From positions 2,287,990 to 2,351,989 of the forward strand of contig NZ_CP075524.1 in the NCBI RefSeq assembly GCF_025808395.1: a stretch of 64,000 bases of DNA, written 5' to 3'. The translations under genes were made by a program, and so were the position numbers. Shown here piece by piece: positions 20,301-55,023 of the stretch (its first letter is position 1; each line of letters opens with the position of its first letter). The notes below the pieces were generated by a model. The model had not been told where the DNA came from, did no database searches, and saw only the letters and a program-made list of their open reading frames with translations. This DNA comes from Microcella sp. Lineage in GTDB: Bacteria > Actinomycetota > Actinomycetes > Actinomycetales > Microbacteriaceae.

Positions 20301-23300
20301 AACGGTGACCGTGCGGTCGCTCGACTCGAGCCCGTCGGTGGTCTTCAACCCCAGGCCCGCGTTTGACGAGCGCGACCCGATCGAGCTCAGCGAGGTGACC
20401 AACACCTACGAGTCTGCGTCGCTCACGATCAGCAAGACCGTGAACATGAATGGTGCCGTCAACGCGGCGGGTGCTCCGGTGATGCAGACCAGCTTCACCT
20501 TCAGCATCGCCTGCACCTTCAACGTCGGAGCAGGCCCGCAGCCGGTGTCGGTGACGCCGGCGACCTTCACCCTCAACGACGGCGAGTCGCGCACCTATAC
20601 GGGGCTCCCCGCCGGTGCCGTCTGCACCGTCACCGAGACCAACACCCGTGGCGCCACCGTGACCAAGACGATCACCACCGGCGGCGCGTCGACCGAGCCG
20701 AACGCGACGACCGCGGTGGTGACGCTGTCGCCCGACGCCGAGGGGGGCGCAGCGACCAACACGGTGGCGTACACCAACAGCATTCCGGTCGCCTCGCTGA
20801 CCGTGAACAAGGTGCTCACGGGCGCGGGTGCGACGCAGTACGGCACCGGCACCTTCACGATCCGCGTGAGCTGCACGAAAGCGGCCACCGTCAACGACAT
20901 GCCGACTGGTGCCCCGACGAACTCGGTCTGGTACGGCACCTTCACCCTGTCGTCGGCCAGCGGGCTGAGTCGCACGATCGACAACATTCCTGCCGGCTCG
21001 AGTTGCACGGTGACCGAGACCGAGAGCGCCGGTGCCACCCAGGTGACCACCCAGGGGGCGATCACCCTCACGGCATCGCCCACGGTCACTCGGTCGGTGA
21101 CCAACCGATTCGCGCTCGCCTCGCTCGTGGTCGGCAAGACGGTGCAGACCGCAGCCGTCGACGCTGAGGGCAACCCGGTCTACCCCATCGACCCGTTCGC
21201 CTTCGAGGTGGCCTGCACCTTCCAGGGCGGCACCGTGCTGGCCACCGGCTTCGCAGCCTCGCCCATGACCTTCGCACTGCGGCACGGAGAGACTCGCACG
21301 CTCGCAGGGCTGCCGGCGGGTGCCTCGTGCGTCGTCACCGAGACCGACGATCTCGATGCCGATTCGACCTCGATCGCGCGCACCGTCAACGCCACCTCGA
21401 CGTCGATCGAGGGCACGTCGACGACGATCGCCTCGCTCGCCGAAGACGTGTCGGGAGCGCCGCGCAACAGCACCCAGTTCACCAACCGCTACGGCGTCAC
21501 GAGCTTCACGATCTCGAAAGACGTCATCGGCGGGGCAGCCGGGCAGTTCGCGCCCGAGTCGTTCACGGCGAACCTGGTCTGCACGTCGCCCCTCGTCGGT
21601 GAGTCGTTCAACGACGACCTCACGGTGCCGGCCAACGGCTTCGTGACGATCGAGAACCTCGCCGACGGCTCGACGTGCACGGTCTTCGAGCGCGATGTCG
21701 CCGCGACCGGTGCCGACGCTCACCGTATCGTCGACGACGAGGGCACCGTCATCGACGGCACCGACATTCTCGTGACCACGGGCAACCCCGCGTCGGTCAC
21801 GCTCGAGAACTACTACCTCACCGGTGAGCTCGAGGTGTCGAAGTCGGTCATCGGCGCCGGCGCCGTGTACGGCGATGGCCCATTCGAGGTGACCCTGGCC
21901 TGCGTGCGCGACGGCATCGCCGTCGACATCGCCGGCGGCGCCACTCGCGAGCTCGCTCCCGACGGCACCGTCAGCTACACCCTGCTGCCGTCTGGCGCAG
22001 AGTGCACGCTGACCGAGACAGATCGCGGCAGCGCCACCTCGAGCCGCGTCCTCGACGAGAACGGCGACGAGCTGACCACCAACGTCGGCACGGGTTACAC
22101 CTTCACGGTGATCGTCGACGCCTCTGAGCTCGTCGATGACCAGCCGCAGCCCTCGCTCGAGGTCGAGAACACCTTCGAGCTCGCGAGCCTCGCCGTCTCG
22201 AAGACCGTGTCGAGTGCGGCCGTCGATCAGAACGGCGATGCGATCGAGTTCGGGCCGTTCCCGGTCACGGTCGACTGCCTCTTCCAGTCGGTCAACGTCT
22301 ACGGCACCGGCTACGACGCCGAGACTCAGATGCAGCGCGAGCTCGTCGACGGCGAGACCTGGGTTCTCACCGGGCTGCCCGACGGCGCCGTGTGCACCGT
22401 CACCGAGACCGACACCATGAGTGCCGTCGAGACGCGCATCACCACGGTGCGCGACGGCGCCGGCTCGTCGACGACCACCTCGAGTTCGGCGGTGGTCACG
22501 CTCGGCACCGAGACGACCGCCGAGATCATGAACGACTACACGGTCGGCTCGATCGAGTTGTCGAAGGCGGTCATCGGCGAGGGCACCGGCGAGTGGGCGG
22601 ATGCTCCCTTCGAGATCGACGTGACGTGCGTGCTCGACGACAGCACGGGTGAGCGAGTGGTCTTCTCTCACAGCTTCACGTTCGTGCGCGGAGACGACCC
22701 GGTGACGATCGAGAATCTCGCGTCGGGTGCGCTGTGCACCATTACCGAGACCGCGACCGGTGGCGCGAGCTCGACGACCGTGACGATCGATGGCGACTCC
22801 GTGAGCGGCGTGACCGCCGATGTCGTCATCGCCGATGACCTCGTCGCGGCGACCGTGACGAACACCTTCGGCCTCGGCGAGGTTCGTGTCGAGAAGGTGC
22901 GCGACGGCGAGGGCGCAGACACGTGGGGGGCGGGCCCCTTCGAGGTCGAGCTGTCGTGCGTGCGCGACATCGACGGCGTCGACGAGCAGATCGAGATTCC
23001 GGGCGGCGCTCTGCGTCTCCTGACGTCTGAGGGGTTCTATCGAGCGACCTACGACCTGCTGCCGATCGACGCGGTCTGCTCGCTCGTCGAGACCCGCACC
23101 GCTGGTGCGACGAGCACGAGCATCGATGTCGACGCGGTGACCGTGGGGGCCGCGCCCGTGCAGTTCACGGTGACCAACACCTTCGATGTCGGCAGCGTCG
23201 CGATCGAGAAGACGTTCGCCGGCGACGGCACCGGCCTGTTCGTGCAGGGTCCGTACGAGGCGAGCCTCGCGTGCACCCTCGAGATCGACGGTGTCATCAC

Positions 23301-37826: not shown

Positions 37827-41675
<3,849 letters not shown>

Positions 41676-41693
41676 GCTGCAAACCGAACCGCC

Positions 41694-41727
41694 GAAGGGC
41701 CCGCACCGAACACGGTGCGGGCCCTTC
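41694..41727 (+). terminator. rpoBC terminator hairpin
   Basis: There is a perfect 14-bp stem, GAAGGGCCCGCACC (41694-41707) with GGTGCGGGCCCTTC (41714-41727), and a 6-nt loop. It starts 19 nt after the rpoC stop. No T-tract. Confidence 0.65.
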
Positions 41728-41880
41728 GCGTTCGCGGGGCGCATGTTAACAATGTGACTGGTGTGGACTACCCCCGAACGCGGGGCTATTGTCGGCAGTG
41801 CGGCGTGTCATACCTTTGCGGTCAGGCAGTCCGTGCAAGCGGCCCATCGGGGCGTTCGCATCCAGGGGGGAGGGTTTGCC

Positions 41881-43545
41881 GTGGTTTCCGTCAGTGAAGT
41901 GCTCATCATCCGTGGGTTGCTGCCCATCGAGACGCTCGACAAGGTGCGCGACGTCGGCGACGACGCCGTCGTGGGCGAGCTCATCGACAGTGGCCTTGTG
42001 TCGGCCTCGCAGGTCGCCTCAGCCAAGGCAGAGGTCGCCGGGCTGTCATTCGTCGAACTCGCTGAGTACCCCGTCGACCGCGCCGCCGTCGCTCTCGTGC
42101 CCGCCGCGCTCTGCCGTCGGCACAGCATCCTGCCCATTCACGCGACCGCCACCACGATCACGCTCGCGATGGTCGAGCCCGGCGACGTTCTCGCCATGGA
42201 CGACGTTCGCGCGCTCACTCGCATGCACGTCGTGGCGGTCGTTGCCGAGCGCAATGACCTGCTGGCGGCCATCAACCGGTTTCACCGCGCCGACAGCGAA
42301 CTCAGCGACCTCACCACGGCGATCGAAGAAGAGACGGCTCCGTCGCAGTCTGACGAGTTGGCGCTGCGCGATGCCGACCCCGACGATGCGCCGATCGTGC
42401 GGTTCGTCAACCTCATCATCGGGCAGGCGATTCAAGACCTCGCGTCTGACATCCACATCGAGCCCGGCGAGTTCGAGATGCGCGTGCGCTACCGCATCGA
42501 CGGCGTGCTGCACGATGTGCAGCAGGCGCCCAAGAACATTCAGAACGGTGTCATCTCGCGGCTCAAGATCATGAGCGACATCAACATCGCCGAACGTCGA
42601 CGCCCTCAAGACGGCCGCATGTCGGTGCAGCACGCCGGGCAGGTCATCGACTTGCGCGTGGCGACCCTGCCGACAGTGTTCGGCGAGAAGGTCGTCATGA
42701 GAATCCTCGACAACAACGCGACCCGTCGCGACATCGGTGAGCTCGGCATGCTCGAGCGCAATCTCACGGTCTACCGAAACTCCTACACCAAGCCGTACGG
42801 CATGATTCTGGTCACCGGCCCGACCGGGTCGGGAAAGTCGACGACGCTGTACACCACGCTGCACGCCGTCTCACGGCCCGAGATCAATGTGATCACCGTC
42901 GAAGACCCGGTCGAATACCGCATGGCGGGCATCAACCAGGTGCAGGTGAACCCCAAGGCCGGTCTCACCTTCGCGAGCGCGCTGCGCAGCATCCTGCGAT
43001 CTGACCCTGATGTCGTGCTCATCGGTGAGATCCGCGACCAAGAGACGGCGCAGATCGCCATCGAGGCCTCGCTCACCGGCCACCTCGTGCTCTCGACTCT
43101 GCACACCAACGATGCGCCGAGCGCCATCACCCGACTGATCGAGATGGATATCGAGCCGTTCCTGGTGGGCTCTGCACTCGACTGCGTGGTGGCCCAGCGA
43201 CTCGCCCGCCGCCTCTGCGACCGCTGCAAGCAGCTGCAAGAGTATGACACCGCCCACCTCGATCAGCTCGGGTTCGGTCGGCGCGAAGATGAGTTCTCGC
43301 CGCGGTTTTACCACGCTGTCGGCTGCTCGGCCTGCTCGGGCACGGGCTATCGTGGCCGGCTGGCGCTGCATGAGGTCATGCAGGTGAGCGAAGAGATCGA
43401 GCGGTTGGCGGTCGCGCGAGCGTCGAGCGTCGAGATCATGCACACCGCCACGGCGCAGGGCATGCTGACACTGCGTCAAGACGGCTGGGCGAAGGTGCGC
43501 GCCGGCATGACGTCGATCGAAGAGGTTTTGCGCGTCGTCGCGTGA
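41881..43545 (+). CDS. pilB: type IV pilus assembly (extension) ATPase, PilB/GspE family
   Basis: ORF 41761..43545; GTG 41881 is preferred because GGGGGGAGGG lies 6 nt upstream. It has an N-terminal GspE_N-like domain, Walker A VTGPTGSGKSTT, and the tetra-Cys motif CDRCK...CSACSGTGYRGR typical of extension ATPases. Confidence 0.88.
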   Translation: MVSVSEVLIIRGLLPIETLDKVRDVGDDAVVGELIDSGLVSASQVASAKAEVAGLSFVELAEYPVDRAAVALVPAALCRRHSILPIHATATTITLAMVEPGDVLAMDDVRALTRMHVVAVVAERNDLLAAINRFHRADSELSDLTTAIEEETAPSQSDELALRDADPDDAPIVRFVNLIIGQAIQDLASDIHIEPGEFEMRVRYRIDGVLHDVQQAPKNIQNGVISRLKIMSDINIAERRRPQDGRMSVQHAGQVIDLRVATLPTVFGEKVVMRILDNNATRRDIGELGMLERNLTVYRNSYTKPYGMILVTGPTGSGKSTTLYTTLHAVSRPEINVITVEDPVEYRMAGINQVQVNPKAGLTFASALRSILRSDPDVVLIGEIRDQETAQIAIEASLTGHLVLSTLHTNDAPSAITRLIEMDIEPFLVGSALDCVVAQRLARRLCDRCKQLQEYDTAHLDQLGFGRREDEFSPRFYHAVGCSACSGTGYRGRLALHEVMQVSEEIERLAVARASSVEIMHTATAQGMLTLRQDGWAKVRAGMTSIEEVLRVVA

Positions 43546-43637
43546 CGACGCGCTGTGCACGTGCGGCCGTGTCGGGGGGACGCGGCCGCACGGGGGTCGG
43601 CAACAATGACAGGCAATCACGAACCGAGGGGGAAGCA

Positions 43638-45119
43638 ATGACCGATCCACAGGGCGCGAGCGGAGCCGTCGACGCGACCGTGGGCGCGCGCAGGGTGTGG
43701 TCGGTCACGACCGACGACGCGATGCCGCCGCAGTCGGCGACTCCGCACCTTGCACCTCCTCCTCCGGTCGGCAGCCCCATCGCCACTCCGCCGCCGTCGC
43801 CGAGCGCCCCGCCGTTCGCCACGTCGGCGGCTGCATCGATACCGCTGTCTGCACCCAGCCCGATTGCTGTCGCTTCTCCGCAGCTCGCGCCGCCGCCCTC
43901 CGCACCGCCCATGCGGCTCGATGCCCCACCTCCGGTCGGCGCCGCCCCCCACGATGCACCGCCTCCGGTGAGCATCGGGGCGGTCACCATGCCGGGCATC
44001 CACCCCTCCCTGCTCAGCGCCCTCGACGATCTGGTCGCGCGCGGAGGCTCAGACCTTCACATCGCCGGCGACTCTCGCCCGATGCTGCGGGTCGACGGCG
44101 AGCTCGTGCCGGTCACCGACTCTGCCGTCTGGGCTCGTGCTGAGTCTGAATCGGTGCTCGGCAGCATCCTGACCGATCGGCAGCGCTCGGCATTCGAAGA
44201 CGAGTGGGAGCTCGACTTCGCGATCAGCCCGCGCGGCGACAACCGATTCCGTGTCAACTACTACCGCGAGCGCGACACCATCGCGGCGGCCTTCCGACTG
44301 ATCCCGAACGAGATCAAGTCGCTCAAGCAGCTCGGTGTGCCGAGCGTGGTCTCGCGCTTCGCCACTCTGCCGCGCGGTCTCGTGCTCGTCACGGGCCCCA
44401 CCGGTTCGGGCAAGTCGACCACGCTCGCAGCCCTCATCGATCTCGTGAACCGCTCTCGTGCCGACCACATCGTGACGATCGAAGACCCGATCGAGTTCGT
44501 GCACCAGAACCAGCGCTCGCTCGTCAACCAGCGCGAGGTCGGCGCAGACACGCACTCGTTCGCCGACGCTCTCAAGCGCGTGCTGCGCCAAGACCCCGAC
44601 GTCATCTTGATCGGTGAGCTGCGCGACCTCGAGACGGTCTCGACCGCCCTCACCGCGGCCGAGACCGGCCACCTCGTCTTCGCCACGCTGCACACCCAGT
44701 CGGCCGCGCAGACGATCGACCGCATCATCGACGTCTTTCCGCCGCATCAGCAGGGCCAGGTGCGCTCGCAGCTCGCGCTGACCCTGCAGGGTGTGGTCTG
44801 CCAGACCCTGCTGCCGCGCGCGACAGGCTCGGGCCGCATCATCGCCACCGAGATCATGGTCACGACGGGTGCCATCGCCAACCTCATCCGTGAGGGCAAG
44901 ACCTACCAGATTCCCTCGTCGCTGCAGGCGGGTCGAGAAGCCGGCATGCACACGATGGACCAGCACCTCGCCGATCTCGTCAACAGCCACATGGTGACGT
45001 ACGAGGCGGCGGTCGCGAAGATGCAAGACGCTGAGAGTTTCATGAGGCTCGTCCATGCGACGGGCTCACCCTCAGGTGCGGCTGCAGGCTTCGGCGACGT
45101 TGCAGGAGGGCAGCGCTAA
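43638..45119 (+). CDS. pilT: type IV pilus retraction ATPase PilT with a ~117-aa Pro-rich N-terminal extension
   Basis: It has Walker A VTGPTGSGKSTTLAAL, IIDVFP, and the PilT-specific motif AIANLIREGK. It has no tetra-Cys motif. ATG 43638 follows GAGGGGGAAG. Alternative starts are GTG 43542 (GTGA overlap with the pilB stop) and ATG 43989 (canonical length). Confidence 0.85.
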   Translation: MTDPQGASGAVDATVGARRVWSVTTDDAMPPQSATPHLAPPPPVGSPIATPPPSPSAPPFATSAAASIPLSAPSPIAVASPQLAPPPSAPPMRLDAPPPVGAAPHDAPPPVSIGAVTMPGIHPSLLSALDDLVARGGSDLHIAGDSRPMLRVDGELVPVTDSAVWARAESESVLGSILTDRQRSAFEDEWELDFAISPRGDNRFRVNYYRERDTIAAAFRLIPNEIKSLKQLGVPSVVSRFATLPRGLVLVTGPTGSGKSTTLAALIDLVNRSRADHIVTIEDPIEFVHQNQRSLVNQREVGADTHSFADALKRVLRQDPDVILIGELRDLETVSTALTAAETGHLVFATLHTQSAAQTIDRIIDVFPPHQQGQVRSQLALTLQGVVCQTLLPRATGSGRIIATEIMVTTGAIANLIREGKTYQIPSSLQAGREAGMHTMDQHLADLVNSHMVTYEAAVAKMQDAESFMRLVHATGSPSGAAAGFGDVAGGQR

Positions 45120-46351
45120 TGGCCTCTACATTGACCTATGCATACACCGGTCGTGATTCAACGGGCAAAGTCGTAAAGGGTCGGGTCGATGCTCCAGGAG
45201 AGGCCTCGGTCACGTCGAGGCTTCGAACCATGGGTATTGCGCCGATCTCTATACAGCAGGTATCTGCCGGGTCGGGTCTGAACCGCGAGATCTCGATGGG
45301 CGGACTCTTCGACAAGCGCGTGACCATGAAAGACCTGGCCGTCATGAGTCGCCAGATGGCGACCATGATCGGTGCCGGTCTGCCGCTGCTTCGAGCCTTG
45401 GCAATTCTCGCGGAACAGTCAGAGAACCCCAAGCTGGCTCAGACTCTCGAGGAGGTGCGTGCCGCCGTAGAGAGTGGTGCCACGTTCTCAGACTCTCTTG
45501 CGAAGCATCCAAAGGTGTTCCCGCCTCTCTTAATCAACATGGTGCGCGCAGGAGAGGTTGGCGGATTCTTGGAGTCTGCGCTGGAGTCAGTGGCGCGAAA
45601 CTACGAGAAGGAAGTGCAACTGCGCGCGACCATCAAGTCGGCTCTGACCTACCCGGTGGTGGTGCTCATCATGGCGCTGGTCGCCGTCGTCGGCATGATC
45701 CTCTTCATCGTTCCCATCTTCGAGCAGATGTTTGCTGACCTCGGCGGCACACTGCCCGTACCCACCCTCATACTCGTCGCCATCTCGAACAGTATGATCT
45801 GGCTGGGGCCGCTCCTACTGGTCGCGATGATCATCGGCACAGTGTGGTGGCGAGCGAACCGGCACACGCCCAAATTCCGGTCGGTGTACGAGCCGGCACT
45901 CTTGAAGATGCCGGTGTTTGGCCCACTCTTCGCCAAGGTCGCTATCGCTCGCTTCTCGCGCAACTTCTCGACAATGGTCGGATCTGGAGTGCCGATCTTG
46001 CAGGCACTCTCGATCATCGGCTCGACATCCGGCAACTGGCAGATTGAACAGGCGATCATCAAGGTGCAGGACTCTGTGAGGCAAGGACGCTCGATCTCAG
46101 CTCCGCTGCAAGAGGAATCGATCTTTCCGTCTATGGTGACCCAAATGATCGCGGTGGGCGAAGACTCGGGCGCTCTAGAAGCCATGCTCGACAAGATTGC
46201 CGACTTCTATGACGCCGAGGTTCAAAGCACGACCGAGCAACTCACGGCACTCATCGAACCGATCATGATCGCCTTCCTGGGAGTCATACTCGGGGGCATG
46301 ATCGTGGCTCTGTATCTGCCCATCTTCGACATCTTCAATCAGGTCCAGTAG
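45119..46351 (+). CDS. pilC: type IV pilus platform protein, PilC/GspF family
   Basis: 410-aa polytopic protein with duplicated T2SSF-type domains. It has a 1-nt TAATG overlap with pilT. Confidence 0.88.
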   Translation: MASTLTYAYTGRDSTGKVVKGRVDAPGEASVTSRLRTMGIAPISIQQVSAGSGLNREISMGGLFDKRVTMKDLAVMSRQMATMIGAGLPLLRALAILAEQSENPKLAQTLEEVRAAVESGATFSDSLAKHPKVFPPLLINMVRAGEVGGFLESALESVARNYEKEVQLRATIKSALTYPVVVLIMALVAVVGMILFIVPIFEQMFADLGGTLPVPTLILVAISNSMIWLGPLLLVAMIIGTVWWRANRHTPKFRSVYEPALLKMPVFGPLFAKVAIARFSRNFSTMVGSGVPILQALSIIGSTSGNWQIEQAIIKVQDSVRQGRSISAPLQEESIFPSMVTQMIAVGEDSGALEAMLDKIADFYDAEVQSTTEQLTALIEPIMIAFLGVILGGMIVALYLPIFDIFNQVQ

Positions 46352-46486
46352 GCGCGCCGAATGCCCCCCGCACTGGGGATGTTCGCGCCCGAACAACGCA
46401 TACATCATTAGTGGCGGGGGGCCGGTTTCATGTTCCGTGGGGGGCCCACCTATCAACCTTCACTTGATGGGAAAGGAAACGGACAC

Positions 46487-46894
46487 ATGTCCATCACTAC
46501 CGCACTGGAAACACAGCGACGTCGCATCGAGGACAACGAGAAGGGTTTCACCCTGATCGAGCTCTTGGTCGTCGTGCTCATCATCGGCATTCTCGCTGCG
46601 ATCGCCATCCCGGTCTTCATCGGCCAGCAGAACCAGGCCCGCGACGCTGCAGCGACCTCAGACCTCGCGAACATTCGCGTGGCTATGGTGTCGTACTCGG
46701 TCGCCGAAGGCGGCACCTTTGCAGGGGTCACCGTCGCTGACTTGCAAGGCAACGGCTATGTTCAATCGACCACCGCCGCTCCGACTATCGCCAGCGCAGA
46801 TGCCAACGGCTTTTGTGTGTGGGTGCAGTCAGACTCGGGTACCAACTTCCAGGTGACCGAGGCCGCTGGCGTGACTGAGGGCAACTGCACGTAA
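46487..46894 (+). CDS. pilA: major type IV prepilin
   Basis: ORF trimmed to ATG 46487, with GAAAGGAAA upstream. It has a 20-aa leader ending in Gly, then FTLIELLVVVLIIGILAAIAIPVF (Phe+1, Glu+5). Two C-terminal Cys (FCVWV...GNCT) suggest a disulfide loop. The mature protein is ~115 aa. Confidence 0.85.
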   Translation: MSITTALETQRRRIEDNEKGFTLIELLVVVLIIGILAAIAIPVFIGQQNQARDAAATSDLANIRVAMVSYSVAEGGTFAGVTVADLQGNGYVQSTTAAPTIASADANGFCVWVQSDSGTNFQVTEAAGVTEGNCT

Positions 46895-46933
46895 GCCTGA
46901 CAAGGCATGAAGACAGACGTCTTGTCTGTCGGC

Positions 46934-46968
46934 GGGGCGAGGGCACCAGCTTAGGTGCTCTCGTCCCC
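46934..46968 (+). terminator. candidate attenuator/terminator hairpin after the major pilin gene
   Basis: GGGGCGAGGGCACC-agctta-GGTGCTCTCGTCCCC forms an imperfect stem with one bulge and one mismatch. It is preceded by a smaller hairpin, GACAGAC-gtctt-GTCTGTC (46912-46930). Confidence 0.35.
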
Positions 46969-47030
46969 GTCGGGCCTCGCTGCAATGGAGAAGCAGAGCA
47001 GCGACAGCAATCTGACCGGGGGGAGCAGAG

Positions 47031-47447
47031 ATGAAAAGCGTCGAGACAGCACACCGATTTGCCGCTTCGCACGATCGCGAAGCGGGTTTCGGCTTGATCG
47101 AGATCGTCGTCTCGATGTTCCTCCTCGCACTCCTCGCCGTTGCGTTTGCGCCAGTTCTCATCTCTGCCATTCGCGCGAGCGCTGCGAACACCACCACGGC
47201 GACAGCTACCCAGCTGGTCAATGAGCGCATGCAGATTGCCCAATCACTCAGCCCAATCTGCGCGAACGTCGCCGGCCTGGTGGGCTCGGCCACTCTTGTC
47301 GACTCCCGCGACGTGACCATTGAGGTCACGACCATCGTGGGGGAGTGTCCCGGGGTTGTTGGCACCGTCCGCGTCGAGAGTGTCGCAGTTCGCCTTGACA
47401 CAGAAGAAGAGTTGGCGCGCGCGTCGACGCTGGTGTTTGTCGAATGA
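47031..47447 (+). CDS. minor pilin (prepilin-type N-terminal cleavage/methylation domain)
   Basis: 138 aa. The leader ends ...DREAG, then FGLIEIVVSMFLLALLAVAFAPVL (Glu+5). It has two Cys. It overlaps the next gene by ATGA. Confidence 0.7.
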   Translation: MKSVETAHRFAASHDREAGFGLIEIVVSMFLLALLAVAFAPVLISAIRASAANTTTATATQLVNERMQIAQSLSPICANVAGLVGSATLVDSRDVTIEVTTIVGECPGVVGTVRVESVAVRLDTEEELARASTLVFVE

Positions 47448-48031
47448 CACTTGCGCAGCGACTCCAAGGCTACGAGCAACGGCGAGACCGTGGACTGACA
47501 CTCGTCGAGCTCGTCGTCGCGGCAAGCCTTCTCTCTCTCGTGCTTGTGGTGGTGGGCGGTATCTTCACCAGCTTGATCAATGCAGAGCGCACGGTGACTC
47601 CCCAAAGCCAGGGTGCGACCGCCGCTCAGCTGGCTGCGAGTTCCATCAGCACAGCGATCCGCAACTCGTCGGAGTTTCGCATCACCGACGTGGGGGCAGA
47701 CCAGCTACTGGTTGCTCGCGTCGCCGGTACGGCCGCGAACATCGAATGGTCGTGCCAGGCGTGGTACTTCACGACGGCCGGCGACGGAGAGATCCGCTCT
47801 ACCATCGTGAACGATGGTGCCGCCATACTTGCACCCACCCCGGCACAACTGGCCGACTGGACTCTGCTAATCGCTGGGGTTGCACCACCAGCGGGTCAGA
47901 ACGTCTTCGTTGCAGCAGGATCCAGCTTGACTGTCGCGTTCGACGCGGATGCTGGCGATTCACCAACTATCGCGATCCGACTGACGGCCGCGAGTCTCAC
48001 CTCCGCGGGAGAGGAAGCCACATGTTTCTGA
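47444..48031 (+). CDS. minor pilin (prepilin-type N-terminal domain, PilW/GspJ-like size)
   Basis: 195 aa. The leader ends ...RRDRG, then LTLVELVVAASLLSLVLVVVGGIF (Glu+5). Confidence 0.7.
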   Translation: MTLAQRLQGYEQRRDRGLTLVELVVAASLLSLVLVVVGGIFTSLINAERTVTPQSQGATAAQLAASSISTAIRNSSEFRITDVGADQLLVARVAGTAANIEWSCQAWYFTTAGDGEIRSTIVNDGAAILAPTPAQLADWTLLIAGVAPPAGQNVFVAAGSSLTVAFDADAGDSPTIAIRLTAASLTSAGEEATCF

Positions 48032-49659
48032 CCAATTTGGTGCGTCGAGTTCGCTCTGACGACCACGGCGTCGCTCTCGCCTCTGTCATCGGCATGATGG
48101 CGGTGGGGCTCATACTCACTGCAGTCATATCGACCACAGTGGTGAGCTCGGTCAGCTTCACGTCTCTTACACGGGCTGGTGTGCAGTCGCAGGCCGGTGC
48201 CGAAGCGGGAGTCGCGGCCGCGCGCGCGGGTCTTGTCGCCGGCACTTGCGTCGTCAACGGCGGTGTCTATGAGAATGTCCCTGGCGAAGAGCCCGTTTTC
48301 GAGGCGACGATCTGGCTCGAGACACCAAGTGGCTGGACGCGAGGTTGCCCGACCAACACTTCGACGCAGGTGCGGATTCTCTCGACAGGATTCGCCTCCG
48401 AGACCGGAGCCGGGCAATCATCGGCTCGTGATGAGGCACAGCTAGAGGCAGTGCTGGGCTCAGTCACCGGGACGGGCGGCATCTTTCCGAGCGGCCCCGC
48501 CATCTACGCGTATAGCGCTTCAGGGTTCGGCGGGTCCGGAACACTCCTTGCTGTCGACGGTTCAAGCCCCAGCGTCTTGGTCAAGCAGGGAAACGTCACG
48601 TGCTCCGGCGCCAGCGGAGGTGATGCCGACTGGGTTGTCGACAACGGCAACTTGACCATCAGTGGATCGTGCCACATCGCTGGTAATGCGTGGGCGTCAG
48701 GTTTCACCACGATGTCGGGTGGCGTGCGCGTGAACGGCAACCTGGTGTCAAACGGCATTGACGTTTCGGGAAGCTCGGTCGTTCAAGGCAATGCTTGGTC
48801 GACGACTGGGATCACGTTGAGCGGCGGTGGCACCACCATCGGCGGCAACGCAAGTGCGAACGCACTCACCATGAATTCGAGCACTCGCATCGGGGGAAAC
48901 GCCTGGGTGGCAACAAACACGTACATGACGTGGGGCAGCCAGATCGGCGGTCGATTGACAACGCAAAGCCGCACTGGCCCCAGCGGCACGGTTGGTTCGT
49001 TGTCGTTGATTCCGGCCGGTCCTGGCCCGAGCCCGTACCTGACTCCGCCCCGACCGTTCGTTCCAGATTGGGTCGACTATCGGTTCGACCCAGACCTGTG
49101 GCCGGGCTTCACTGTTGTCACCTTGAGCGGAGCCTGCAACTATGGCACGTTCAACACCGCACTCGCCACCATTGGGTCGAGTCAAGGCGTGATTGATGCG
49201 CGTGGATGCACGAATGGCGAGTTCAATCCAGGAAGCTGGCAGAAGTTGAATCTCGTAAATGACGTCGCCATTATTGCAAACCGGTTCACCATGAACGGGA
49301 GCGCCGGGTTCACCGCCACCAACGATGTGCGGCTGTGGCTCATCACCCCCGACACTGTCATCGACGGCTTGCCTACGTGCCCTTCAGGTGCTTCGTTCAC
49401 GATCGGAGGCTCGTTCACCTTCTCGACGCCGATCTCGACCCTCATCTACACACCCTGTGATGCGAACATCGCCTCGGGCCTTCGCATCAAAGGACAACTG
49501 TTTGCCGGTGAGGTTAGCGTTGGCGGGGCCGCTCAGATCTCTTATGACCCCATTGGTATCCCCGGCGTCAACCTCTCGACCGGCGAGCAGTCAGCCGGTG
49601 GCACCTCTGAGTCTGACCGGCAAGTACTTTGGATCCGGTCGGTCAACGGTGTCGGCTAG
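48022..49659 (+). CDS. large Glu5-less minor pilin / putative pilus tip protein (PilX/GspK-like N-terminus, beta-helix-like repeats)
   Basis: ORF 47320..49659 trimmed to ATG 48022, with GGGAGAGGAAG upstream. The N-terminus ...SDDHG then VALASVIGMMAVGLILTAV has Ser at +5. There are G-N-A-W / G-N-x repeats at 48682-48960. 545 aa. Confidence 0.6.
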   Translation: MFLTNLVRRVRSDDHGVALASVIGMMAVGLILTAVISTTVVSSVSFTSLTRAGVQSQAGAEAGVAAARAGLVAGTCVVNGGVYENVPGEEPVFEATIWLETPSGWTRGCPTNTSTQVRILSTGFASETGAGQSSARDEAQLEAVLGSVTGTGGIFPSGPAIYAYSASGFGGSGTLLAVDGSSPSVLVKQGNVTCSGASGGDADWVVDNGNLTISGSCHIAGNAWASGFTTMSGGVRVNGNLVSNGIDVSGSSVVQGNAWSTTGITLSGGGTTIGGNASANALTMNSSTRIGGNAWVATNTYMTWGSQIGGRLTTQSRTGPSGTVGSLSLIPAGPGPSPYLTPPRPFVPDWVDYRFDPDLWPGFTVVTLSGACNYGTFNTALATIGSSQGVIDARGCTNGEFNPGSWQKLNLVNDVAIIANRFTMNGSAGFTATNDVRLWLITPDTVIDGLPTCPSGASFTIGGSFTFSTPISTLIYTPCDANIASGLRIKGQLFAGEVSVGGAAQISYDPIGIPGVNLSTGEQSAGGTSESDRQVLWIRSVNGVG

Positions 49660-50485
49660 CCTGGTCGCACCCGCGATCGTTGCGGCGCTACTAGGTGCGA
49701 TGATCGGCTCATTTCTGAACGTGGTGATCCACCGTGTGCCCGCTGGCCGTTCGATCGTTCGACCAGCCAGCGCCTGCCCCGCCTGTGGAGCACGCGTGCG
49801 ACCTCGTGACAACGTTCCAATCGTGTCGTGGTTGCTTCTCAAGGGTCGTTGCCGCGACTGCGACGCCCAAGTATCGCGCCGCTACCCGATCATCGAACTG
49901 GTCACCGCGGCCGCTTTCGCTGGTGTCACCCTCGTCATGGCGGGCGCAGTACTCGATGCTCGCTCGGTGCCATATGCCCTCGCTGCAGTAACCGCACTCG
50001 TCGCGCATCTCTACTTCGCGTCGATCTCGATCGCACTTGCGGCGATAGATCTCGACACGCATCGGCTACCCGATGCAATCGTCCTTCCGTCATACGCGGT
50101 GGGTGGAGCATTGCTATCGATTGCTGCGATCGCCGCCGACGATCTCGAGGGGCTGGCGACTGCGGCCGCCGGTGCAGGAATCCTCTTCAGTCTCTACTTG
50201 ACGCTCGCCATGATCACGCCGCGCGGGATGGGTATGGGCGATGTCAAGCTTTCGGGCCTCATCGGCCTCTACCTAGGGTGGGCAGGATGGTCAGCGATCG
50301 CCGTCGGCACACTCGCTGCATTTTTGCTCGGTGGTGTGCTCGGCATCATTCTCCTCGCCACTCGGCGGGCGAGTCGCAACACCGGAATACCCTTCGGGCC
50401 GTGGATGCTAGGGGGAGCCTGGATGGGAATCATGCTCGGTGAGCCGATCGCGCAGGGCTATCTCGCGATCTTTGGTCTGGACTAA
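49649..50485 (+). CDS. pilD: prepilin peptidase (A24 family, PilD)
   Basis: ORF 49325..50485 trimmed to GTG 49649. It has the N-terminal CPACG...CRDC zinc motif. The first catalytic Asp lies in GMGMGDVKL and the second region is IPFGPWMLGG. It is polytopic, 278 aa. Confidence 0.85.
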   Translation: MSASLVAPAIVAALLGAMIGSFLNVVIHRVPAGRSIVRPASACPACGARVRPRDNVPIVSWLLLKGRCRDCDAQVSRRYPIIELVTAAAFAGVTLVMAGAVLDARSVPYALAAVTALVAHLYFASISIALAAIDLDTHRLPDAIVLPSYAVGGALLSIAAIAADDLEGLATAAAGAGILFSLYLTLAMITPRGMGMGDVKLSGLIGLYLGWAGWSAIAVGTLAAFLLGGVLGIILLATRRASRNTGIPFGPWMLGGAWMGIMLGEPIAQGYLAIFGLD

Positions 50486-50493
50486 GGGGCAGC

Positions 50494-51543
50494 ATGTCAA
50501 GCGGAGTGGTCGGAATCGACATCGGCAGCTCTCTGTTGCGCGCAGTCGAGATTGATGATGCATCAAAGGAACGGCCTACCGTATTGAGGGCACACGAGGT
50601 TCCGCTACCCGAGGGTTCGGTCAAACGCGGTGAGGTGCTTGAAGTCCACACAGTAGCTTCTGCCTTCAAGCGATTGTGGGCCGCGGGAGGCTTTCGATCG
50701 AAGAATGTCGCGCTGGGTATCGGTGGGCAGAGCGTCATTGTGCGCGATCTTGCTGTGCCCCGCATGCCTTTGCCCCAGATTCGAGAGTCGCTTCCTTTTC
50801 AAGTTCAAGACCTATTGCCCGTGCCGGTCAACGATGCGGTTCTCGACTACTACCCGATCTCGGAGGGCCAGGCAGAGTCGGGGCCAATCGTCAACGGTCT
50901 GCTCATCGCTGCGTTCAAGCAAGCGGTGAGTTCCAACGTCACTGCGGCGACGATGGCCGGGCTCACTCCCATCAGCATGGATCTCTTGCCGTTCGCCATG
51001 ACGCGAATGCACAGCTTGTCGTCGCCGACCAACGGATTCGCCGTGCACATGAGTATCGGAGCGAACACCACTTCCATTGTCATTGCACAGGGGGCCGTTC
51101 CTCTGTTCGTGCGAATCGTTCCTGCGGGAGGCGACGATGCAACACGTTCACTCATGACGCGTTTGAATGTGCCGCGGGAGAAAGCGGAGGCCCTCAAGCG
51201 CGAATTGGGCCTGACCTCCCCCGGCGCGACTGACGAAGAGCGTCGCGCCGTCGAGGTCATCCACGAATCGACCAGCGAACTCCTGACTGCGGTTCGCAAC
51301 ACCCTGGCCTATTTCGCGGGGGTGAGAAGCGGCGTAACGTTCGAGCACCTCTCCGTTGCGGGAGGGGCTACCCGCATGAAGGGATTCGCTAATGCACTTG
51401 CAGAATCGACACGGATATCTGTGGTGCCGGTGAACCCACTGGCCGGTGTGACCGTCAGTCGTGCTCTCCGCGGAAAGACGAATGACGAACGAATCCAAGA
51501 GTGGATCACCGCGATCGGTCTCGCCATGGGAAGTGCATCGTGA
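50494..51543 (+). CDS. pilM: type IV pilus assembly protein PilM (actin-like ATPase fold)
   Basis: 349 aa with the N-terminus VVGIDIGSSLLRAVEI (actin-fold phosphate-1 motif). The position and size fit PilM. Confidence 0.8.
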   Translation: MSSGVVGIDIGSSLLRAVEIDDASKERPTVLRAHEVPLPEGSVKRGEVLEVHTVASAFKRLWAAGGFRSKNVALGIGGQSVIVRDLAVPRMPLPQIRESLPFQVQDLLPVPVNDAVLDYYPISEGQAESGPIVNGLLIAAFKQAVSSNVTAATMAGLTPISMDLLPFAMTRMHSLSSPTNGFAVHMSIGANTTSIVIAQGAVPLFVRIVPAGGDDATRSLMTRLNVPREKAEALKRELGLTSPGATDEERRAVEVIHESTSELLTAVRNTLAYFAGVRSGVTFEHLSVAGGATRMKGFANALAESTRISVVPVNPLAGVTVSRALRGKTNDERIQEWITAIGLAMGSAS

Positions 51544-52211
51544 GTCGGCGTGACGCGCGGGAGACGACCTCCATCATCTTGGGAGCCGCCCCACGAGCAC
51601 GCCTCATGCCGCCAGAGGTTGCTCTGCGTCGCAAAGAAACGGGGCGCAGGCGAGGCCTCATCGCGGTCATGGTTCTGGTTGTTTCGCTCGTTGCTGGAGG
51701 CGTTGCAGCCGCCTTCTGGTATGCGGGACAGGCTGAGGCGCGCCTTGCAGCTGAACGCCAGGTTACGGACGAGCTGCTCACTACTCAATTGCAGTACGCC
51801 GAAGTAATTCAGGTTCGTTCGCAGCTCGACAGCATCAAGGGAGTTCGAGATCGATTGGGTGCGACGGAAGTGTTGTGGCGCGACGTAGTGACTCAATACT
51901 TGGCAGTGCTGAACGCAGAAGAGATTCTCGAGGCTGCCTCGATCACAGGCATTGACCCCAACGGGCCTGCGCTGGGGCTCGCAGACCCATTGAGGAGCCC
52001 CCGAGCCGCGACGATTATCATGACGGTGGCGACAGTCGATCTACCGACACCTCACCAATGGCTGCGGTCGTGGAAGCTCTTGGACACGTTTGCGGATGCC
52101 AGCATTGACTCCATCCTCGAGGAGGACGGTTGGTATCTCAGCACTGTGACGATCAACTTGGACAGCACCGCGCTCTCAGGACGGACCAGTGAGTCGGAGG
52201 TCGAACAATGA
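51540..52211 (+). CDS. pilN: type IV pilus assembly protein PilN-like
   Basis: GTG 51540 overlaps the pilM stop (GTGA). The N-terminal RLMPPEV resembles the PilM-binding (I/V)NLLP motif. It has a single TM helix followed by a coiled coil. 223 aa. Confidence 0.65.
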   Translation: MSRRDARETTSIILGAAPRARLMPPEVALRRKETGRRRGLIAVMVLVVSLVAGGVAAAFWYAGQAEARLAAERQVTDELLTTQLQYAEVIQVRSQLDSIKGVRDRLGATEVLWRDVVTQYLAVLNAEEILEAASITGIDPNGPALGLADPLRSPRAATIIMTVATVDLPTPHQWLRSWKLLDTFADASIDSILEEDGWYLSTVTINLDSTALSGRTSESEVEQ

Positions 52212-52894
52212 CGACTGCATCCACGAGGATCTGGACCTTCGCGACCGTCATCGTTGTCATCGTCGTCATCGCGCTCGGGTGGTTTCTCGGGGTCTCCCCC
52301 AAGCTCGCTGAGGCTGCGAGACTCGATGCCGAGCGCGCGGCGATCGAGTTGCAGAACGAGGCCACCCGAGTGGTCAATGCGCAACTCGAGCAAGACTTCC
52401 GTTCGATCAATAGCCTGCGAACCCAGATCGATGAACTCAGGGATCGTTTTCCCTCCGCCGTCGAATATGACAACGCCATCGAAGAGCTTCTGGCGGGCAT
52501 CGTTGGTGAGTCGCTGTCGTTGCAGAGTGTTGTTTTGGCGGCGCCAGTGGCTGACAGTCCTGATGCGATTGTCGATGAAAATGGACAGGTTGCCGCTGGC
52601 ACTCTCGTGCGTGTACCAATCACCATCACGGTGAAGGGGGACTTCAACCGGGCGTTGGGACTTATCAACAGAATGCAGTTGTCAGAACGCTTTGGCATCG
52701 TCGTTACCGCCGACTATGTCGATGGTCGGGATGAGGAAGAACGCACGACTGTCATCAACCTCGTGATATTCGTGGTTACCGACTCACCTGTGTCACTTCG
52801 TGATGGCAATGATCCGAGCGAGAGTGACGGTGAACCTGTCCCGAGCCCGAGTGCGTCACCCACCGCGGAACCTGACGACGAAACCGATCAGTAG
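52208..52894 (+). CDS. pilO: type IV pilus assembly protein PilO-like
   Basis: It has an ATGA overlap with pilN. It has a single N-terminal TM helix (IWTFATVIVVIVVIALGWFLGV), a coiled coil, then a small alpha/beta domain and an acidic Pro-rich tail. The call rests on topology and position. Confidence 0.6.
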   Translation: MTTASTRIWTFATVIVVIVVIALGWFLGVSPKLAEAARLDAERAAIELQNEATRVVNAQLEQDFRSINSLRTQIDELRDRFPSAVEYDNAIEELLAGIVGESLSLQSVVLAAPVADSPDAIVDENGQVAAGTLVRVPITITVKGDFNRALGLINRMQLSERFGIVVTADYVDGRDEEERTTVINLVIFVVTDSPVSLRDGNDPSESDGEPVPSPSASPTAEPDDETDQ

Positions 52895-52987
52895 GCGCGA
52901 TGAAGCTACGCTTCGCAGTCTGAATCTCTTCGGCCACCTCGCCTTGGTAGGGTGACGCGTTCGGATGTCTCAGTGAGAGGACGCGTC

Positions 52988-53806
52988 ATGGCTACGAAGC
53001 CCGCACCAGAGCCCGCAGAAGAACCGACGGACAACGAGACCCCGGCGGCGCCAGACTCGACCGCGCCGAGCGCGACGGCAGAGCAGCCCGTCGTCGAGCC
53101 GGCGCCCGCCGAGCCCGCACCGGCGGCCGATGCCGCTGAAACTGCTCCGGCAGCGCCCGCGGACGCCCCCGCGACGCCCACGTCGACCGAGGCGACAGCC
53201 CCAGTCGCCCCCGAGCAGCCCGCCGTCGTCTTCGTCACGGCGCCGCAGCCGCCGAAGAAGCGCGGCGCGCGCGGGGTCGGAGCCCTCGTCGTCGTGCTGA
53301 GCACCGTGCTCTTCGCCGCCGTCTATGCGGTGCTCGTGTTCATCATCGCTCTGCTGAGCGGCGTCAGTGGCGTCATCCAAGCCGCTCAATTCGTCTCATC
53401 GGTCAACTTCTACGTTCCGGTGATCGTGTTCTTCTTCGCGCATCTGCTGCTCGTGATCATCGTCAACCGGGGCGGCTGGTGGGCGCATGTGCTCGGCGGG
53501 TTCTTCGTCGCACTCGTGGTCTGGATCGGATTCGTCGGCGCCGCCCTCATCTCGGCCGGCGCCGTCGGTGCCGCGTCGAGCGTGGTCTCTGCCATCGTGC
53601 TGCAGCAGCTCACGAACCCGCTCGGCTTCGCCGCGGCGATCGCGGCGCGCGAGGTTCCGATCTGGGTCGGCGGCATCGTCTCGAAGCGCGGACGCACCGC
53701 TCGCGCGCGCAACGTCGAAGCTCACGCCGCCTACGAGCGCGAATTGGCCGAGCACCGTGCCACCGTCTCGAGCGCACCCAGCACGAGCACGAGAACTGCC
53801 GTTTGA
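52988..53806 (+). CDS. hypothetical polytopic membrane protein with a Pro/Ala/Glu-rich N-terminus
   Basis: ORF 52952..53806 trimmed to ATG 52988, with GAGAGGA upstream. It has ~100 aa of low complexity, then about 4 TM helices. GC returns to the backbone level here. Confidence 0.5.
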   Translation: MATKPAPEPAEEPTDNETPAAPDSTAPSATAEQPVVEPAPAEPAPAADAAETAPAAPADAPATPTSTEATAPVAPEQPAVVFVTAPQPPKKRGARGVGALVVVLSTVLFAAVYAVLVFIIALLSGVSGVIQAAQFVSSVNFYVPVIVFFFAHLLLVIIVNRGGWWAHVLGGFFVALVVWIGFVGAALISAGAVGAASSVVSAIVLQQLTNPLGFAAAIAAREVPIWVGGIVSKRGRTARARNVEAHAAYERELAEHRATVSSAPSTSTRTAV

Positions 53807-54093
53807 CCGCGAGCGCACCCGCACTCTATTCTTGACTTCGTGTGTGCTTCGGCGCGCGCTTGTGCCGTGCCGTGAAAACGGCCCGGTCGAGTTCGCGAAG
53901 GGCGCACGCAGAGGGTCACTGGATGCTCGTCCGCTTCGGCTGGCGGCCCCACACCCCCACGGCATATCTGTCACCGGTTGAGCCTGCTCGACTGATCCGT
54001 CAGATTTCGCGTGAGCCCGAGAGCGATTGAACTCGCACTCGGGGACATCCAACCGCAATCGCTGTCACCGTGCAGCACAGTCAAGGAGCAGTT

Positions 54094-54468
54094 TTGCCCA
54101 CTATTCAACAGCTGGTCCGCAAGGGCCGCTCGCCGAAGGTCTCGAAGACCAAGGCGCCGGCCCTCAAGGCCAACCCGCAGCAGCGCGGCGTCTGCACGCG
54201 CGTCTACACGACCACTCCGAAGAAGCCCAACTCGGCTCTGCGCAAGGTGGCCCGTGTCAAGCTCAGCAACGGCACCGAGGTCACCGCCTACATTCCCGGT
54301 GAGGGCCACAACCTGCAAGAGCACTCGATGGTGCTCGTGCGCGGCGGTCGTGTGAAAGACCTGCCCGGCGTGCGCTACAAGATCGTGCGCGGTGCGCTCG
54401 ACACCCAGGCGGTCAAGAACCGGAAGCAAGCGCGCAGCCGCTACGGAGCGAAGATGGACAAGAAGTAA
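54094..54468 (+). CDS. rpsL: 30S ribosomal protein S12
   Basis: TTG 54094 lies 5 nt after AAGGAG and gives (M)[11 protein letters not shown].... The sequence contains [34 protein letters not shown]. 124 aa. Confidence 0.95.
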
Positions 54469-54938
54469 TGCCACGTAAAGGCCCCGCACCCAAGCGCCCC
54501 GTCGTCGCAGACCCCGTCTACGGCGCTCCGATCGTCAGCCAGCTCGTCAACAAGATTCTTCTCGACGGCAAGAAGGGCCTCGCCGAGCGCATCGTCTACG
54601 GTGCCCTCGAAGGCGTGTCGGCCAAGAACGGTCAAGACGCTGTCGCGACCCTGAAGAAGGCCCTCGACAACGTGCGCCCCACCCTCGAGGTGCGGTCGCG
54701 TCGCGTCGGCGGCTCGACCTACCAGGTGCCCGTCGAGGTCAAGCCGCACCGCGCGAACACGCTCGCGCTGCGCTGGTTGACCAGCTACGCCAAGGCGCGT
54801 CGCGAGAAGACGATGACCGAGCGGCTCATGAACGAGATTCTCGACGCCTCGAACGGCCTCGGTGCCGCGGTCAAGCGTCGTGAAGACACTCACAAGATGG
54901 CCGAGTCGAACAAGGCCTTCGCGCACTACCGCTGGTAA
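54468..54938 (+). CDS. rpsG: 30S ribosomal protein S7
   Basis: [19 protein letters not shown].... It has a 1-nt TAATG overlap with rpsL. 156 aa. Confidence 0.95.
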
Positions 54939-55023
54939 CGACCAGCCTGCGGGCAGGGGCTGAGGGCCCCGGTCATCACCCCTGCTCGCACCCGCAACTT
55001 TTATCGAACCGGAGGAACCCCCC

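Follow-up and report, generated by a model that had tools for sequence, protein, structure and literature searches.

A predicted secretin-less type IVa pilus locus between rpoC and the str operon of a Microcella species

Genes of the pil locus

The window analysed here is a 64,000-nucleotide (nt) stretch of a Microcella sp. metagenome-assembled genome (MAG; GCF_025808395.1, contig NZ_CP075524.1, positions 2,287,990 to 2,351,989). Eleven co-directional open reading frames (orfs) on its + strand, all intact by orf list and translation, span 41881–52894 and are predicted to encode a type IVa pilus (T4aP). The locus is flanked by the rpoC terminator (5′) and the rpsL-rpsG-fusA-tuf operon (3′), and the gene order is pilB, pilT, pilC, pilA, minor pilin 1, minor pilin 2, a gene for a 545-amino acid (aa) pilin-like protein, pilD, pilM, pilN and pilO. 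The pil proteins are 100% identical to entries under locus tags KIT89_11355, 11370 and 11375. An earlier interpretation made from the DNA letters without database searches (the sequence-only reading) had described eleven tightly packed genes, and the junctions and overlaps it gave match the sequence exactly: TAATG at 45119 (pilT/pilC), ATGA at 47444, GTGA at 51540 and ATGA at 52208, with overlapping orfs at 48022–48031 (10 nt) and 49649–49659 (11 nt). Intergenic gaps of >100 nt are found only around pilA (135 nt on its 5′ side, 136 nt on its 3′ side), the pilB-pilT gap being 92 nt if pilT starts at ATG 43638. The genes are as follows.

41881–43545, + strand: pilB, extension ATPase, 554 aa (T2SSE and MshEN domains, motifs)
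43638–45119, + strand: pilT, retraction ATPase, 493 aa (TIGR01420; AIANLIREGK)
45119–46351, + strand: pilC, inner-membrane platform protein, 410 aa (two T2SSF domains)
46487–46894, + strand: pilA, major prepilin, 135 aa (N_methyl, TIGR02532)
47031–47447, + strand: minor pilin 1, 138 aa (AG/FGLIE; N_methyl, E = 7.5e-6, above the gathering score)
47444–48031, + strand: minor pilin 2, 195 aa (RG/LTLVE; N_methyl, E = 6.2e-6, above the gathering score)
48022–49659, + strand: large pilin-like protein, 545 aa (HG/VALAS, no Glu5; putative tip subunit)
49649–50485, + strand: pilD, prepilin peptidase/N-methyltransferase, 278 aa (A24_N_bact, 1.5e-33; Peptidase_A24, 1.2e-12)
50494–51543, + strand: pilM, actin-like cytoplasmic alignment protein, 349 aa (PilM_2, 3.3e-37)
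51540–52211, + strand: pilN-like gene, bitopic protein, 223 aa (divergent family missed by Pfam PilN)
52208–52894, + strand: pilO, 228 aa (profile of 28 homologues)

PilB matches Pfam T2SSE (1.1e-135) and MshEN (2.4e-20), with TIGR02538 (type IV-A pilus assembly ATPase PilB) as its top NCBIfam model (630 bits, short of the equivalog cutoff of 675.65) and Geobacter PilB (5zfr, 499 bits) as the closest solved structure. It has a Walker A motif (GPTGSGKS) and a tetracysteine motif (CDRC...CSAC), and its GTG start at 41881 is backed by a strong ribosome-binding site (RBS; GGGGGGAGGG) and by an identical N-terminus in Microcella relatives. By eye, the RLG triplets of the cyclic di-GMP (c-di-GMP) motif of MshEN, RLGxx(L/V/I)(L/V/I)xxG..., are not conserved in the PilB N-terminus, and therefore no claim of c-di-GMP binding is made. 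PilC matches PF00482 (T2SSF) in two stretches (3.9e-65), and its top NCBIfam models are Myxococcus PilC (416 bits) and Thermus PilC (391 bits), both under their equivalog cutoffs.

PilT exceeds the cutoff of TIGR01420 (PilT/PilU family; 464 bits, cutoff 319), carries Walker A and AIANLIREGK, and is closest to the structure of Geobacter PilT (5zfq, 397 bits), with PilT structures outscoring PilU. The longest possible orf begins at GTG 43542 (525 aa) and holds the canonical core at its residues 156–512, but this start is disfavoured by alignment with the M. pacifica, Leifsonia and MAG orthologues. From these alignments the start is most likely ATG 43638, where MTDPQG... lines up with MTEANG... 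of M. pacifica and MNE... of other orthologues. The core is preceded by a low-complexity, Pro/Ala-rich N-terminal extension of about 115–150 aa. Extensions of variable length (~60–200 aa) are present in all aligned orthologues (M. pacifica, Leifsonia and Microbacteriaceae MAGs), with the motifs RKVWSVT, TPHL..PPPPVG and YDAPPPV kept within Microcella.

PilA is above the cutoffs of both N_methyl (1e-9) and TIGR02532. Its translation has a 20-aa leader, cleavage at KG/FTLIELL and a 115-aa mature protein ending in a Cys...Cys loop, the signal (G-1, F+1, E+5) being joined to a hydrophobic α1N helix. ATG 46487 is most likely the start; it is preceded by a strong RBS (GGAAAGGAAAC), is also used by gene callers in three other assemblies, and yields the mature pilin of ~115 aa that had been anticipated. 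An alternative start at ATG 46430 was rejected, as conservation extends 5′ of this codon and substitutions there are mostly non-synonymous. Minor pilin 1 has weak similarity to PilV and ComGE among NCBIfam models and minor pilin 2 to XpsI (GspI-type).

No Pfam or NCBIfam family scores above threshold for the 545-aa protein, and its N-terminus has weak similarity to GspK (E = 0.074). Homologues are labelled PilX or bactofilin (CcmA) by IMG and many carry PF04519; eight Cys residues are invariant among them, fitting an exported, disulphide-bonded protein. The AlphaFold (AF2) model (predicted local distance difference test score, pLDDT, 81.5) has an N-terminal helix (17–73), a small sheet, a β-solenoid (~160–330) and a β-rich C-terminal domain. 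Foldseek placed a tapirin C-domain first (6n2b; E = 4e-5; template-modelling (TM) score 0.27–0.41) and Thermus thermophilus ComZ next (6qvi; E = 2e-3; TM score 0.20–0.23), but the family profile retrieved only generic bactofilin/YdcK β-helices from the Protein Data Bank (PDB) sequences, and neither ComZ nor tapirin. Tapirins are not known to be pilin-like or to have a class III signal or an N-terminal pilin helix. They bind cellulose and their genes adjoin a type IV pilus locus (bioRxiv 10.1101/359786), and at these TM scores a binding specificity is not transferable to the Microcella protein from the Caldicellulosiruptor tapirins. ComZ, a GspK-like pilin domain into which a β-solenoid is inserted, binds DNA and has been argued to cap the pilus or form its tip (PMC6561018); the predicted architecture of the 545-aa protein is compatible with such tip pilins, 6qvi being among the top matches at a weak TM score. 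Because it has no Glu5, a weakly GspK-like N-terminus and a position after two small minor pilins, the protein fits a putative GspK/PilX-class tip subunit with a ligand-binding module.

The PilD translation contains CPAC...CRDC and the two Asp motifs DLDTHRLPD and GMGDVK, and PilM exceeds the cutoff of TIGR01175 (153.8 bits, cutoff 133). The single PilO sequence does not match PF04350 significantly (E = 0.083), but the profile of its 28 homologues matches PilO of Myxococcus xanthus (3jc8, 3.9e-7) and Pseudomonas aeruginosa (2rjz, 1e-4), and six of the 28 match PF04350 themselves (best, 3e-8).

The 223-aa protein, named 'hypothetical protein' by NCBI, gave no significant Pfam or NCBIfam match on its own (noise only at E up to 10), nor did its family profile retrieve anything from the PDB sequences. 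Members of the family have PRAxLMPPEV at a conserved, cytoplasmic N-terminus, then one transmembrane segment and a long helix. In the Thermus PilM-PilN structure PilM is bound by an N-terminal (I/L)NLLP motif of PilN, which PRAxLMPPEV recalls. The AlphaFold model (pLDDT 77) includes a C-terminal α/β domain, for which Foldseek returned the periplasmic domain of T. thermophilus PilN as top match (4bhq; E = 5.5e-3, prob 1.0), followed by PilO and GspL/XcpY domains. In a 633-aa relative (P0398), PilM_2 (7–346) is fused to a PilN-like domain (421–631); this could be a 'Rosetta stone' joining the PilM and PilN families or, alternatively, a gene-calling read-through. The gene itself is preceded by pilM and followed by pilO, stops and starts overlapping at both junctions. 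On the N-terminal motif and topology, the modelled fold, the fusion relative and this position, we accept the protein as a divergent PilN. An exhaustive HMMER search returned 1,749 cluster representatives of the PilN-like family, and nine of ten that were checked have no relevant Pfam domain, the tenth being a PilM fusion; present hidden Markov model (HMM) libraries appear to overlook actinobacterial PilN.

Eight of the eleven proteins were thus confirmed directly by Pfam/NCBIfam HMMs, the check that the sequence-only reading had proposed; PilN and PilO had no significant match there, PilO being assigned by profile search and PilN by fold, topology, N-terminal motif and the fusion relative. 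The motifs listed in that reading (Walker A, the tetra-Cys motif, AIxNLIREGK, the class III signals, and a large protein without Glu5) were all located in the translations.

Assignment to the type IVa class

We assign the locus to the T4aP because HMMs, profile searches, predicted folds and synteny agree. Both motor ATPases, PilB and PilT, are strongly similar to T4aP motors of known structure from Geobacter, Thermus and Myxococcus. That it encodes a complete, functional, secretin-less machine of monoderm type in this Microcella species is, in our judgement from sequences and models, about 85% probable. PilB, a dedicated PilT, a single two-domain PilC, a class III major pilin, an A24 peptidase with its N-terminal domain and PilM-PilN-PilO are all found, and these same lines of evidence bear out the earlier proposal of a complete monoderm T4a locus with PilT and three minor-pilin-like genes at the rpoC-str position. 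No match to the secretin PilQ or to PilP was obtained with Pfam or NCBIfam among the eleven pil genes and the flanking gene, again as proposed; their absence is expected in a monoderm (PMC6668835) and does not count against the assignment.

Tad/Flp (type IVc) pili are the usual actinobacterial type, and the type IV pili characterised in Bifidobacterium and Micrococcus are Tad (PMC6916266). For the Microcella locus a Tad pilus is refuted by the HMM results, with TadA at 43–50 bits against a cutoff of 373, and its remaining probability is negligible: a single two-domain PilC takes the place of a TadB plus TadC pair, the mature pilin of 115 aa with GFTLIE is no 40–70 aa Flp, and PilT and PilMNO are present. 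A pseudopilus, as in a type II secretion system (T2SS) or a ComG-like system, in which a short fibre spanning the periplasm or wall would serve protein export or just make an opening in the wall, is suggested by the scores of PilB against GspE (588 bits) and PilC against GspF (360 bits), and by GspG as the best NCBIfam match of the major pilin (48 bits). However, these values lie under their cutoffs (630, 424 and 89, respectively), as do ComGA (264.5, cutoff 300), ComGB (129, cutoff 240) and ComGC (39, cutoff 75), and all T2SS and ComG models score below the T4aP models, GspE and GspF below PilB and PilC. A bona fide PilT, which T2SS and ComG lack, is present, as are PilM/N/O rather than GspL/M/C; there is no secretin; and the T4a-type C-terminal disulphide loop and hypervariable exposed regions of the pilin are as for a surface fibre. 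We regard a pseudopilus as very improbable. An HMM assignment to Tad or to a competence system alone, which the sequence-only reading had named as fatal to its claim, did not occur, all such models staying under their cutoffs.

Several points weigh against a complete T4aP. The PilN candidate is matched by no curated HMM and only modestly by a solved structure (E = 5.5e-3, TM score 0.27–0.51), and the structural matches of the 545-aa protein have low TM scores (0.2–0.4) and are mainly to generic β-helices. PilB and PilC, scoring under the NCBIfam equivalog cutoffs, appear to be divergent members of their families, and the N-terminal extension of PilT is atypical. Three pilin-like genes follow pilA (two small with E5, one large without E5) in place of the usual four core minor pilins (GspH/I/J/K-like), and a lenient sigma-70 scan found no convincing promoter.

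Among characterised systems, the T4aP of the monoderm Firmicutes Streptococcus sanguinis, Clostridium perfringens and C. difficile (PMC6916266) resemble the Microcella locus in that their genes lie in a single locus without secretin, PilP or PilQ, include PilB, PilT, PilC, PilD, PilM, PilN and PilO, and encode a long pilin leader peptide and a bulky modular pilin-like protein, a likeness of gene content. The Microcella locus differs in phylum, in having three rather than four core minor-pilin genes, in a PilN too divergent for Pfam, in the Pro/Ala-rich PilT extension, in a predicted β-solenoid in the large pilin instead of, for example, a von Willebrand factor A module, and in the lack of an Rfam-detectable c-di-GMP riboswitch 5′ of pilA. 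The T4aP of P. aeruginosa, M. xanthus and Geobacter provide the closest motors (Geobacter), the PilO profile matches and a comparable pilin N-terminus and disulphide loop, but these diderm systems have PilP, PilQ, TsaP, FimV and PilY1, none of which is in the single operon-like Microcella cluster with its three minor-pilin genes, and a PilA leader of 6–7 aa compared with 20 aa here, long leaders being found in other monoderms as well (PMC6916266). The T4aP/DNA translocator of T. thermophilus has similar PilB (PilF), PilT and PilC, a large pilin-like protein combining an N-terminal pilin helix with a β-solenoid, and the PilN domain that best matches PilN of the window. It differs in belonging to a diderm, in having the secretin PilQ and in the far greater size of PilF, and the ComZ match is weak (TM score ~0.2) and not recovered by the family profile.

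T4aP clusters have already been predicted for Actinobacteria, and the Microcella locus is not unprecedented. Actinobacteria are among the monoderms for which a genomic survey reported T4aP (Denise et al. 2019, PMC6668835), and a review noted actinobacterial T4aP as well, the actinobacterial pili actually studied being Tad-type (Pelicic 2019, PMC6916266). In PMC12871210, type IV pili of Actinoplanes missouriensis zoospores are described as needed for adhesion to hydrophobic surfaces (Kimura et al. 2019, cited there), and type IV pilus clusters of Rubrobacter, Actinoplanes, Cellulomonadaceae, Jonesiaceae and others are given as predicted or confirmed WhiG targets. The clusters of A. missouriensis and Rubrobacter are likewise non-Tad actinobacterial type IV pili, but with FliA/WhiG-type sigma control and a motile spore stage, whereas no sigma-28-like promoter was seen by eye 5′ of pilB or pilA in Microcella. 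The likeness to Actinoplanes is one of system type. Kimura and colleagues are also said to have observed pilT-dependent retraction in Actinoplanes. The statement that a T4a-like machine has hardly been examined in this phylum is therefore fair, with the qualification that surveys had predicted actinobacterial T4aP and that the Actinoplanes pilus has been studied experimentally (Kimura et al. 2019, as cited in PMC12871210). A literature search on type IV pili of Microbacteriaceae, Leifsonia, Curtobacterium and Microcella found nothing specific, and such papers may exist.

Distribution, constraint and non-coding elements

Synteny was surveyed in a sample capped at 80 loci, one genome per species, with the RpoC C-terminus as query. 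Genes of the pil locus lie directly 3′ of rpoC in a Microcella MAG, Leifsonia virtsii, Leifsonia sp. EB34, Curtobacterium oceanosedimentum and two Microbacteriaceae/Actinomycetales MAGs. Microcella pacifica has the identical eleven genes in the same order in the rpoC-rpsL interval, and ~15 Microcella-like metagenome contigs, as well as Leifsonia, Curtobacterium and the Microbacteriaceae MAGs, have the same order and site as far as each contig reaches. At this site, no pil genes follow rpoC in Clavibacter, four Microbacterium species, Homoserinibacter, Gryllotalpicola and Leucobacter, nor in the ~60 sampled loci from other actinobacterial families. Given this pattern of presence and absence at rpoC-rpsL, for which a comparison across the family had been suggested, the pil locus is a conserved, non-universal feature of part of the Microbacteriaceae, lying in a variable interval.

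Genomes without pil genes at this site have other cargo in the interval. Among loci L010–L019, orf translations read by eye suggest that Clavibacter has genes for ABC (ATP-binding cassette) transporters there, and that Gryllotalpicola, Homoserinibacter and Microbacterium have genes resembling Ser/Thr kinases and an orf of 2,223 aa. The stretch between rpoC and rpsL exceeds 10 kb in three genomes. In locus L004 (Microcella sp. MAG W128), a pilin gene (GFTLIELL; 10975–11430) lies between rpoC and pilB, where the window is non-coding; the L004 contig ends after pilB.

Identity to M. pacifica and the Microcella-like contigs falls from PilB (89–94%) through PilT, PilC and PilM (73–86%) and PilD (61–69%) to PilN and PilO (40–53%), and PilA, the minor pilins and the large pilin are only 30–57% identical in most of these contigs (except in contig L088, where the minor pilins and the large pilin reach 55–66%). 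In 20 pilA alleles (including loci L084–L103) the leader, the α1N helix and two C-terminal Cys are common, and the C-terminal halves are hypervariable and of unequal length, which points to diversifying selection on, or cassette exchange of, the exposed pilin surface. Conserved motors (78–94% identical) beside variable pilins fit a filament that works at the cell surface and is exposed to diversifying pressure.

G+C content at third codon positions (GC3) is 0.66–0.76 from pilC through pilO (45119–52894), compared with 0.84–0.89 in rpoC, pilB, the pilT core and the genes after pilO. This drop is shared only with a close relative (L084) and is not seen in other Microcella, Leifsonia or Curtobacterium loci, one Microcella-like contig (L092) having a milder dip confined to pilD-pilO. 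PilC of the window is an outlier, 78–81% identical to other Microcella-like PilC proteins, which share 84–96% among themselves, whereas PilB is nested within its group (92–94%). The GC3 drop, together with the contrast between outlying PilC and nested PilB, suggests, but does not prove, that pilC-pilO was replaced by recombination from a lower-GC relative, with a breakpoint near the pilT/pilC junction.

The atypically low GC3 of pilC-pilO and the lack of a recognisable promoter could also be signs of a remnant that is silent or degenerating and no longer functions. All eleven orfs are intact, however, with catalytic motifs kept; order and position are conserved across genera and the pilA leader is invariant; and the ratio of non-synonymous to synonymous substitution rates (Ka/Ks) relative to L084 is 0.017–0.21 for nine comparable genes (Ks is saturated for pilO), indicating purifying selection and thus functional genes. 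A remnant is accordingly hard to credit.

Besides the pil genes, the following features were delimited.

41694–41727, + strand: rpoC terminator hairpin, perfect 15-bp G+C-rich stem; upstream boundary of the pil locus
46364–46378, + strand: C-run/G-run hairpin CCCCCC-N5-GGGG shortly after the pilC stop, read from the sequence (CCCCCCGCACTGGGG)
46416–46486, + strand: conserved 71-nt region adjoining pilA on its 5′ side, candidate leader/promoter; includes the pilA RBS (GGAAAGGAAAC)
46895–46960, + strand: structured intergenic region, possible attenuator (two hairpins, -30 kcal/mol, z = -2.5)
52952/52988–53806: Pro/Ala-rich membrane protein gene (272–284 aa) between pilO and rpsL

The rpoC terminator lies downstream of rpoC (37827–41675) where the sequence-only reading had placed it and is real: the fold of 41680–41740 has an energy of -43.1 kcal/mol (z = -6.2), equalled by 0 of 200 shuffles. 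The stem has no U-tract on its 3′ side, and the intrinsic-terminator scan missed it. Sites found by the sigma-70 promoter and intrinsic-terminator scans were not in excess over shuffled sequence, and the weak promoter suggested earlier, TTGTCG-N16-TACCTT (41789–41816), is present as a sequence but fails even the lenient sigma-70 scan. No FliA/WhiG-type (sigma-28-like) promoter (TAAA-N15-GCCGATAA) was seen by eye 5′ of pilB or pilA, and an Rfam scan of 41000–55000 (E ≤ 1) found no riboswitch or known leader, with sub-threshold chance matches on the rpoC terminator only.

Across 17 distinct Microcella-like contigs the 71-nt region before pilA shows little or no variation, which for 24 of the 71 nt follows from the search pattern that fixed them; the adjoining spacer on its 5′ side and the coding region of the pilin are variable. 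It holds a direct repeat of TGGGGGGCC, the copies 23 nt apart, and a predicted hairpin, CCU(A/G)UCAA...UUGAU(G/A)GG, just 5′ of the RBS, in which pairing survives two one-sided changes. The covariation test (0 compensatory pairs) is uninformative because the element is too invariant, and the region has no Rfam match. We regard 46416–46486 as a candidate promoter/operator or 5′ untranslated region element. The C-run/G-run stem after pilC is retained, with variable loops, in the 17 contigs; similar hairpins are found in the pilC-pilA spacers of Leifsonia and Curtobacterium (L008, L014), followed by a shared GGGATTC(T/C)GC motif. The two hairpins after pilA could possibly act as an attenuator, a weak suggestion.

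The N-terminal half of the product of the gene after pilO is rich in Pro, Ala and Glu; several transmembrane helices are predicted for the protein, which has no family match in Pfam or NCBIfam at E up to 10. The gene was considered as a twelfth member of the locus and rejected: homologues are found at this place ahead of rpsL whether or not a genome has pil genes, and so it is not pil-specific.

Predicted working and possible roles of the pilus

From homology to characterised T4aP, PilD would cut the 20-aa PilA leader at G/F and probably N-methylate the new N-terminus, and the two small minor pilins would be processed likewise. Together with the GspK/ComZ-like 545-aa protein without Glu5, these minor pilins may form a priming complex that becomes the pilus tip. 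A PilB hexamer on PilC, held by PilM-PilN-PilO, would then polymerise pilins from the membrane through the cell wall, the fibre crossing the wall without a secretin, and PilT would replace PilB to depolymerise the fibre and retract it. The sequences show which genes are present and to which families they belong, that they are intact and under purifying selection, and that site and order are kept across genera; how the fibre is assembled and retracted, where the large pilin sits and what the pilus does are inferred in this scheme. The role is most likely attachment to surfaces or particles and twitching-type pulling. Capture of DNA by the β-solenoid tip protein is a serious alternative, or a second role beside these, and nothing in the 64-kb window favours one over the other.

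A different role for the same machine, and not a different machine, would be that of primarily a DNA-uptake (competence) pilus, in which a ComZ-like tip binds DNA and PilT retraction feeds ComEA/ComEC encoded elsewhere. ComZ is the second-best structural match of the 545-aa protein, it binds DNA and has been modelled at the pilus tip (PMC6561018), and PilT is required for T4aP-dependent transformation in several bacteria (PMC6668835). On the other hand, the TM score to ComZ is very low, the cellulose-binding tapirins match better and a β-solenoid is a generic scaffold; no com genes lie within the 64-kb window; and transformation of Micrococcus luteus relies on Tad-type pili (PMC6916266). DNA uptake as the primary role is thus possible but rather unlikely. 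That Microcella and related Microbacteriaceae are naturally transformable through a T4a pilus with a ComZ-like tip as DNA receptor is more doubtful still. Were it true, Actinomycetota would have their first competence system that depends on a T4aP, and the lineage-specific PilT extension and the invariant pilA leader would be new control points, of retraction and of pilin expression, respectively.

The pil locus overturns nothing established. Type IV pili of monoderms are much less studied than those of diderms, and experimental work in Actinomycetota mostly concerns Tad pili and one Actinoplanes spore pilus. Microcella, Leifsonia and Curtobacterium, common environmental and plant-associated genera, have a compact predicted T4a machine that includes a retraction motor, is maintained by selection and lies at a fixed, easily located chromosomal site. 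It would be tractable for studying how, with no secretin, a fibre gets through a thick actinobacterial wall, what is done by a minor-pilin set of three with a putative β-solenoid tip, and whether the pilus serves twitching or DNA uptake.

Elsewhere in the window, 14344–24009 (+ strand) encodes a 3,221-aa protein in which DUF5979 occurs ten times and DUF7601 twice. It is probably a giant protein of the cell surface, and possibly a second adhesion factor.

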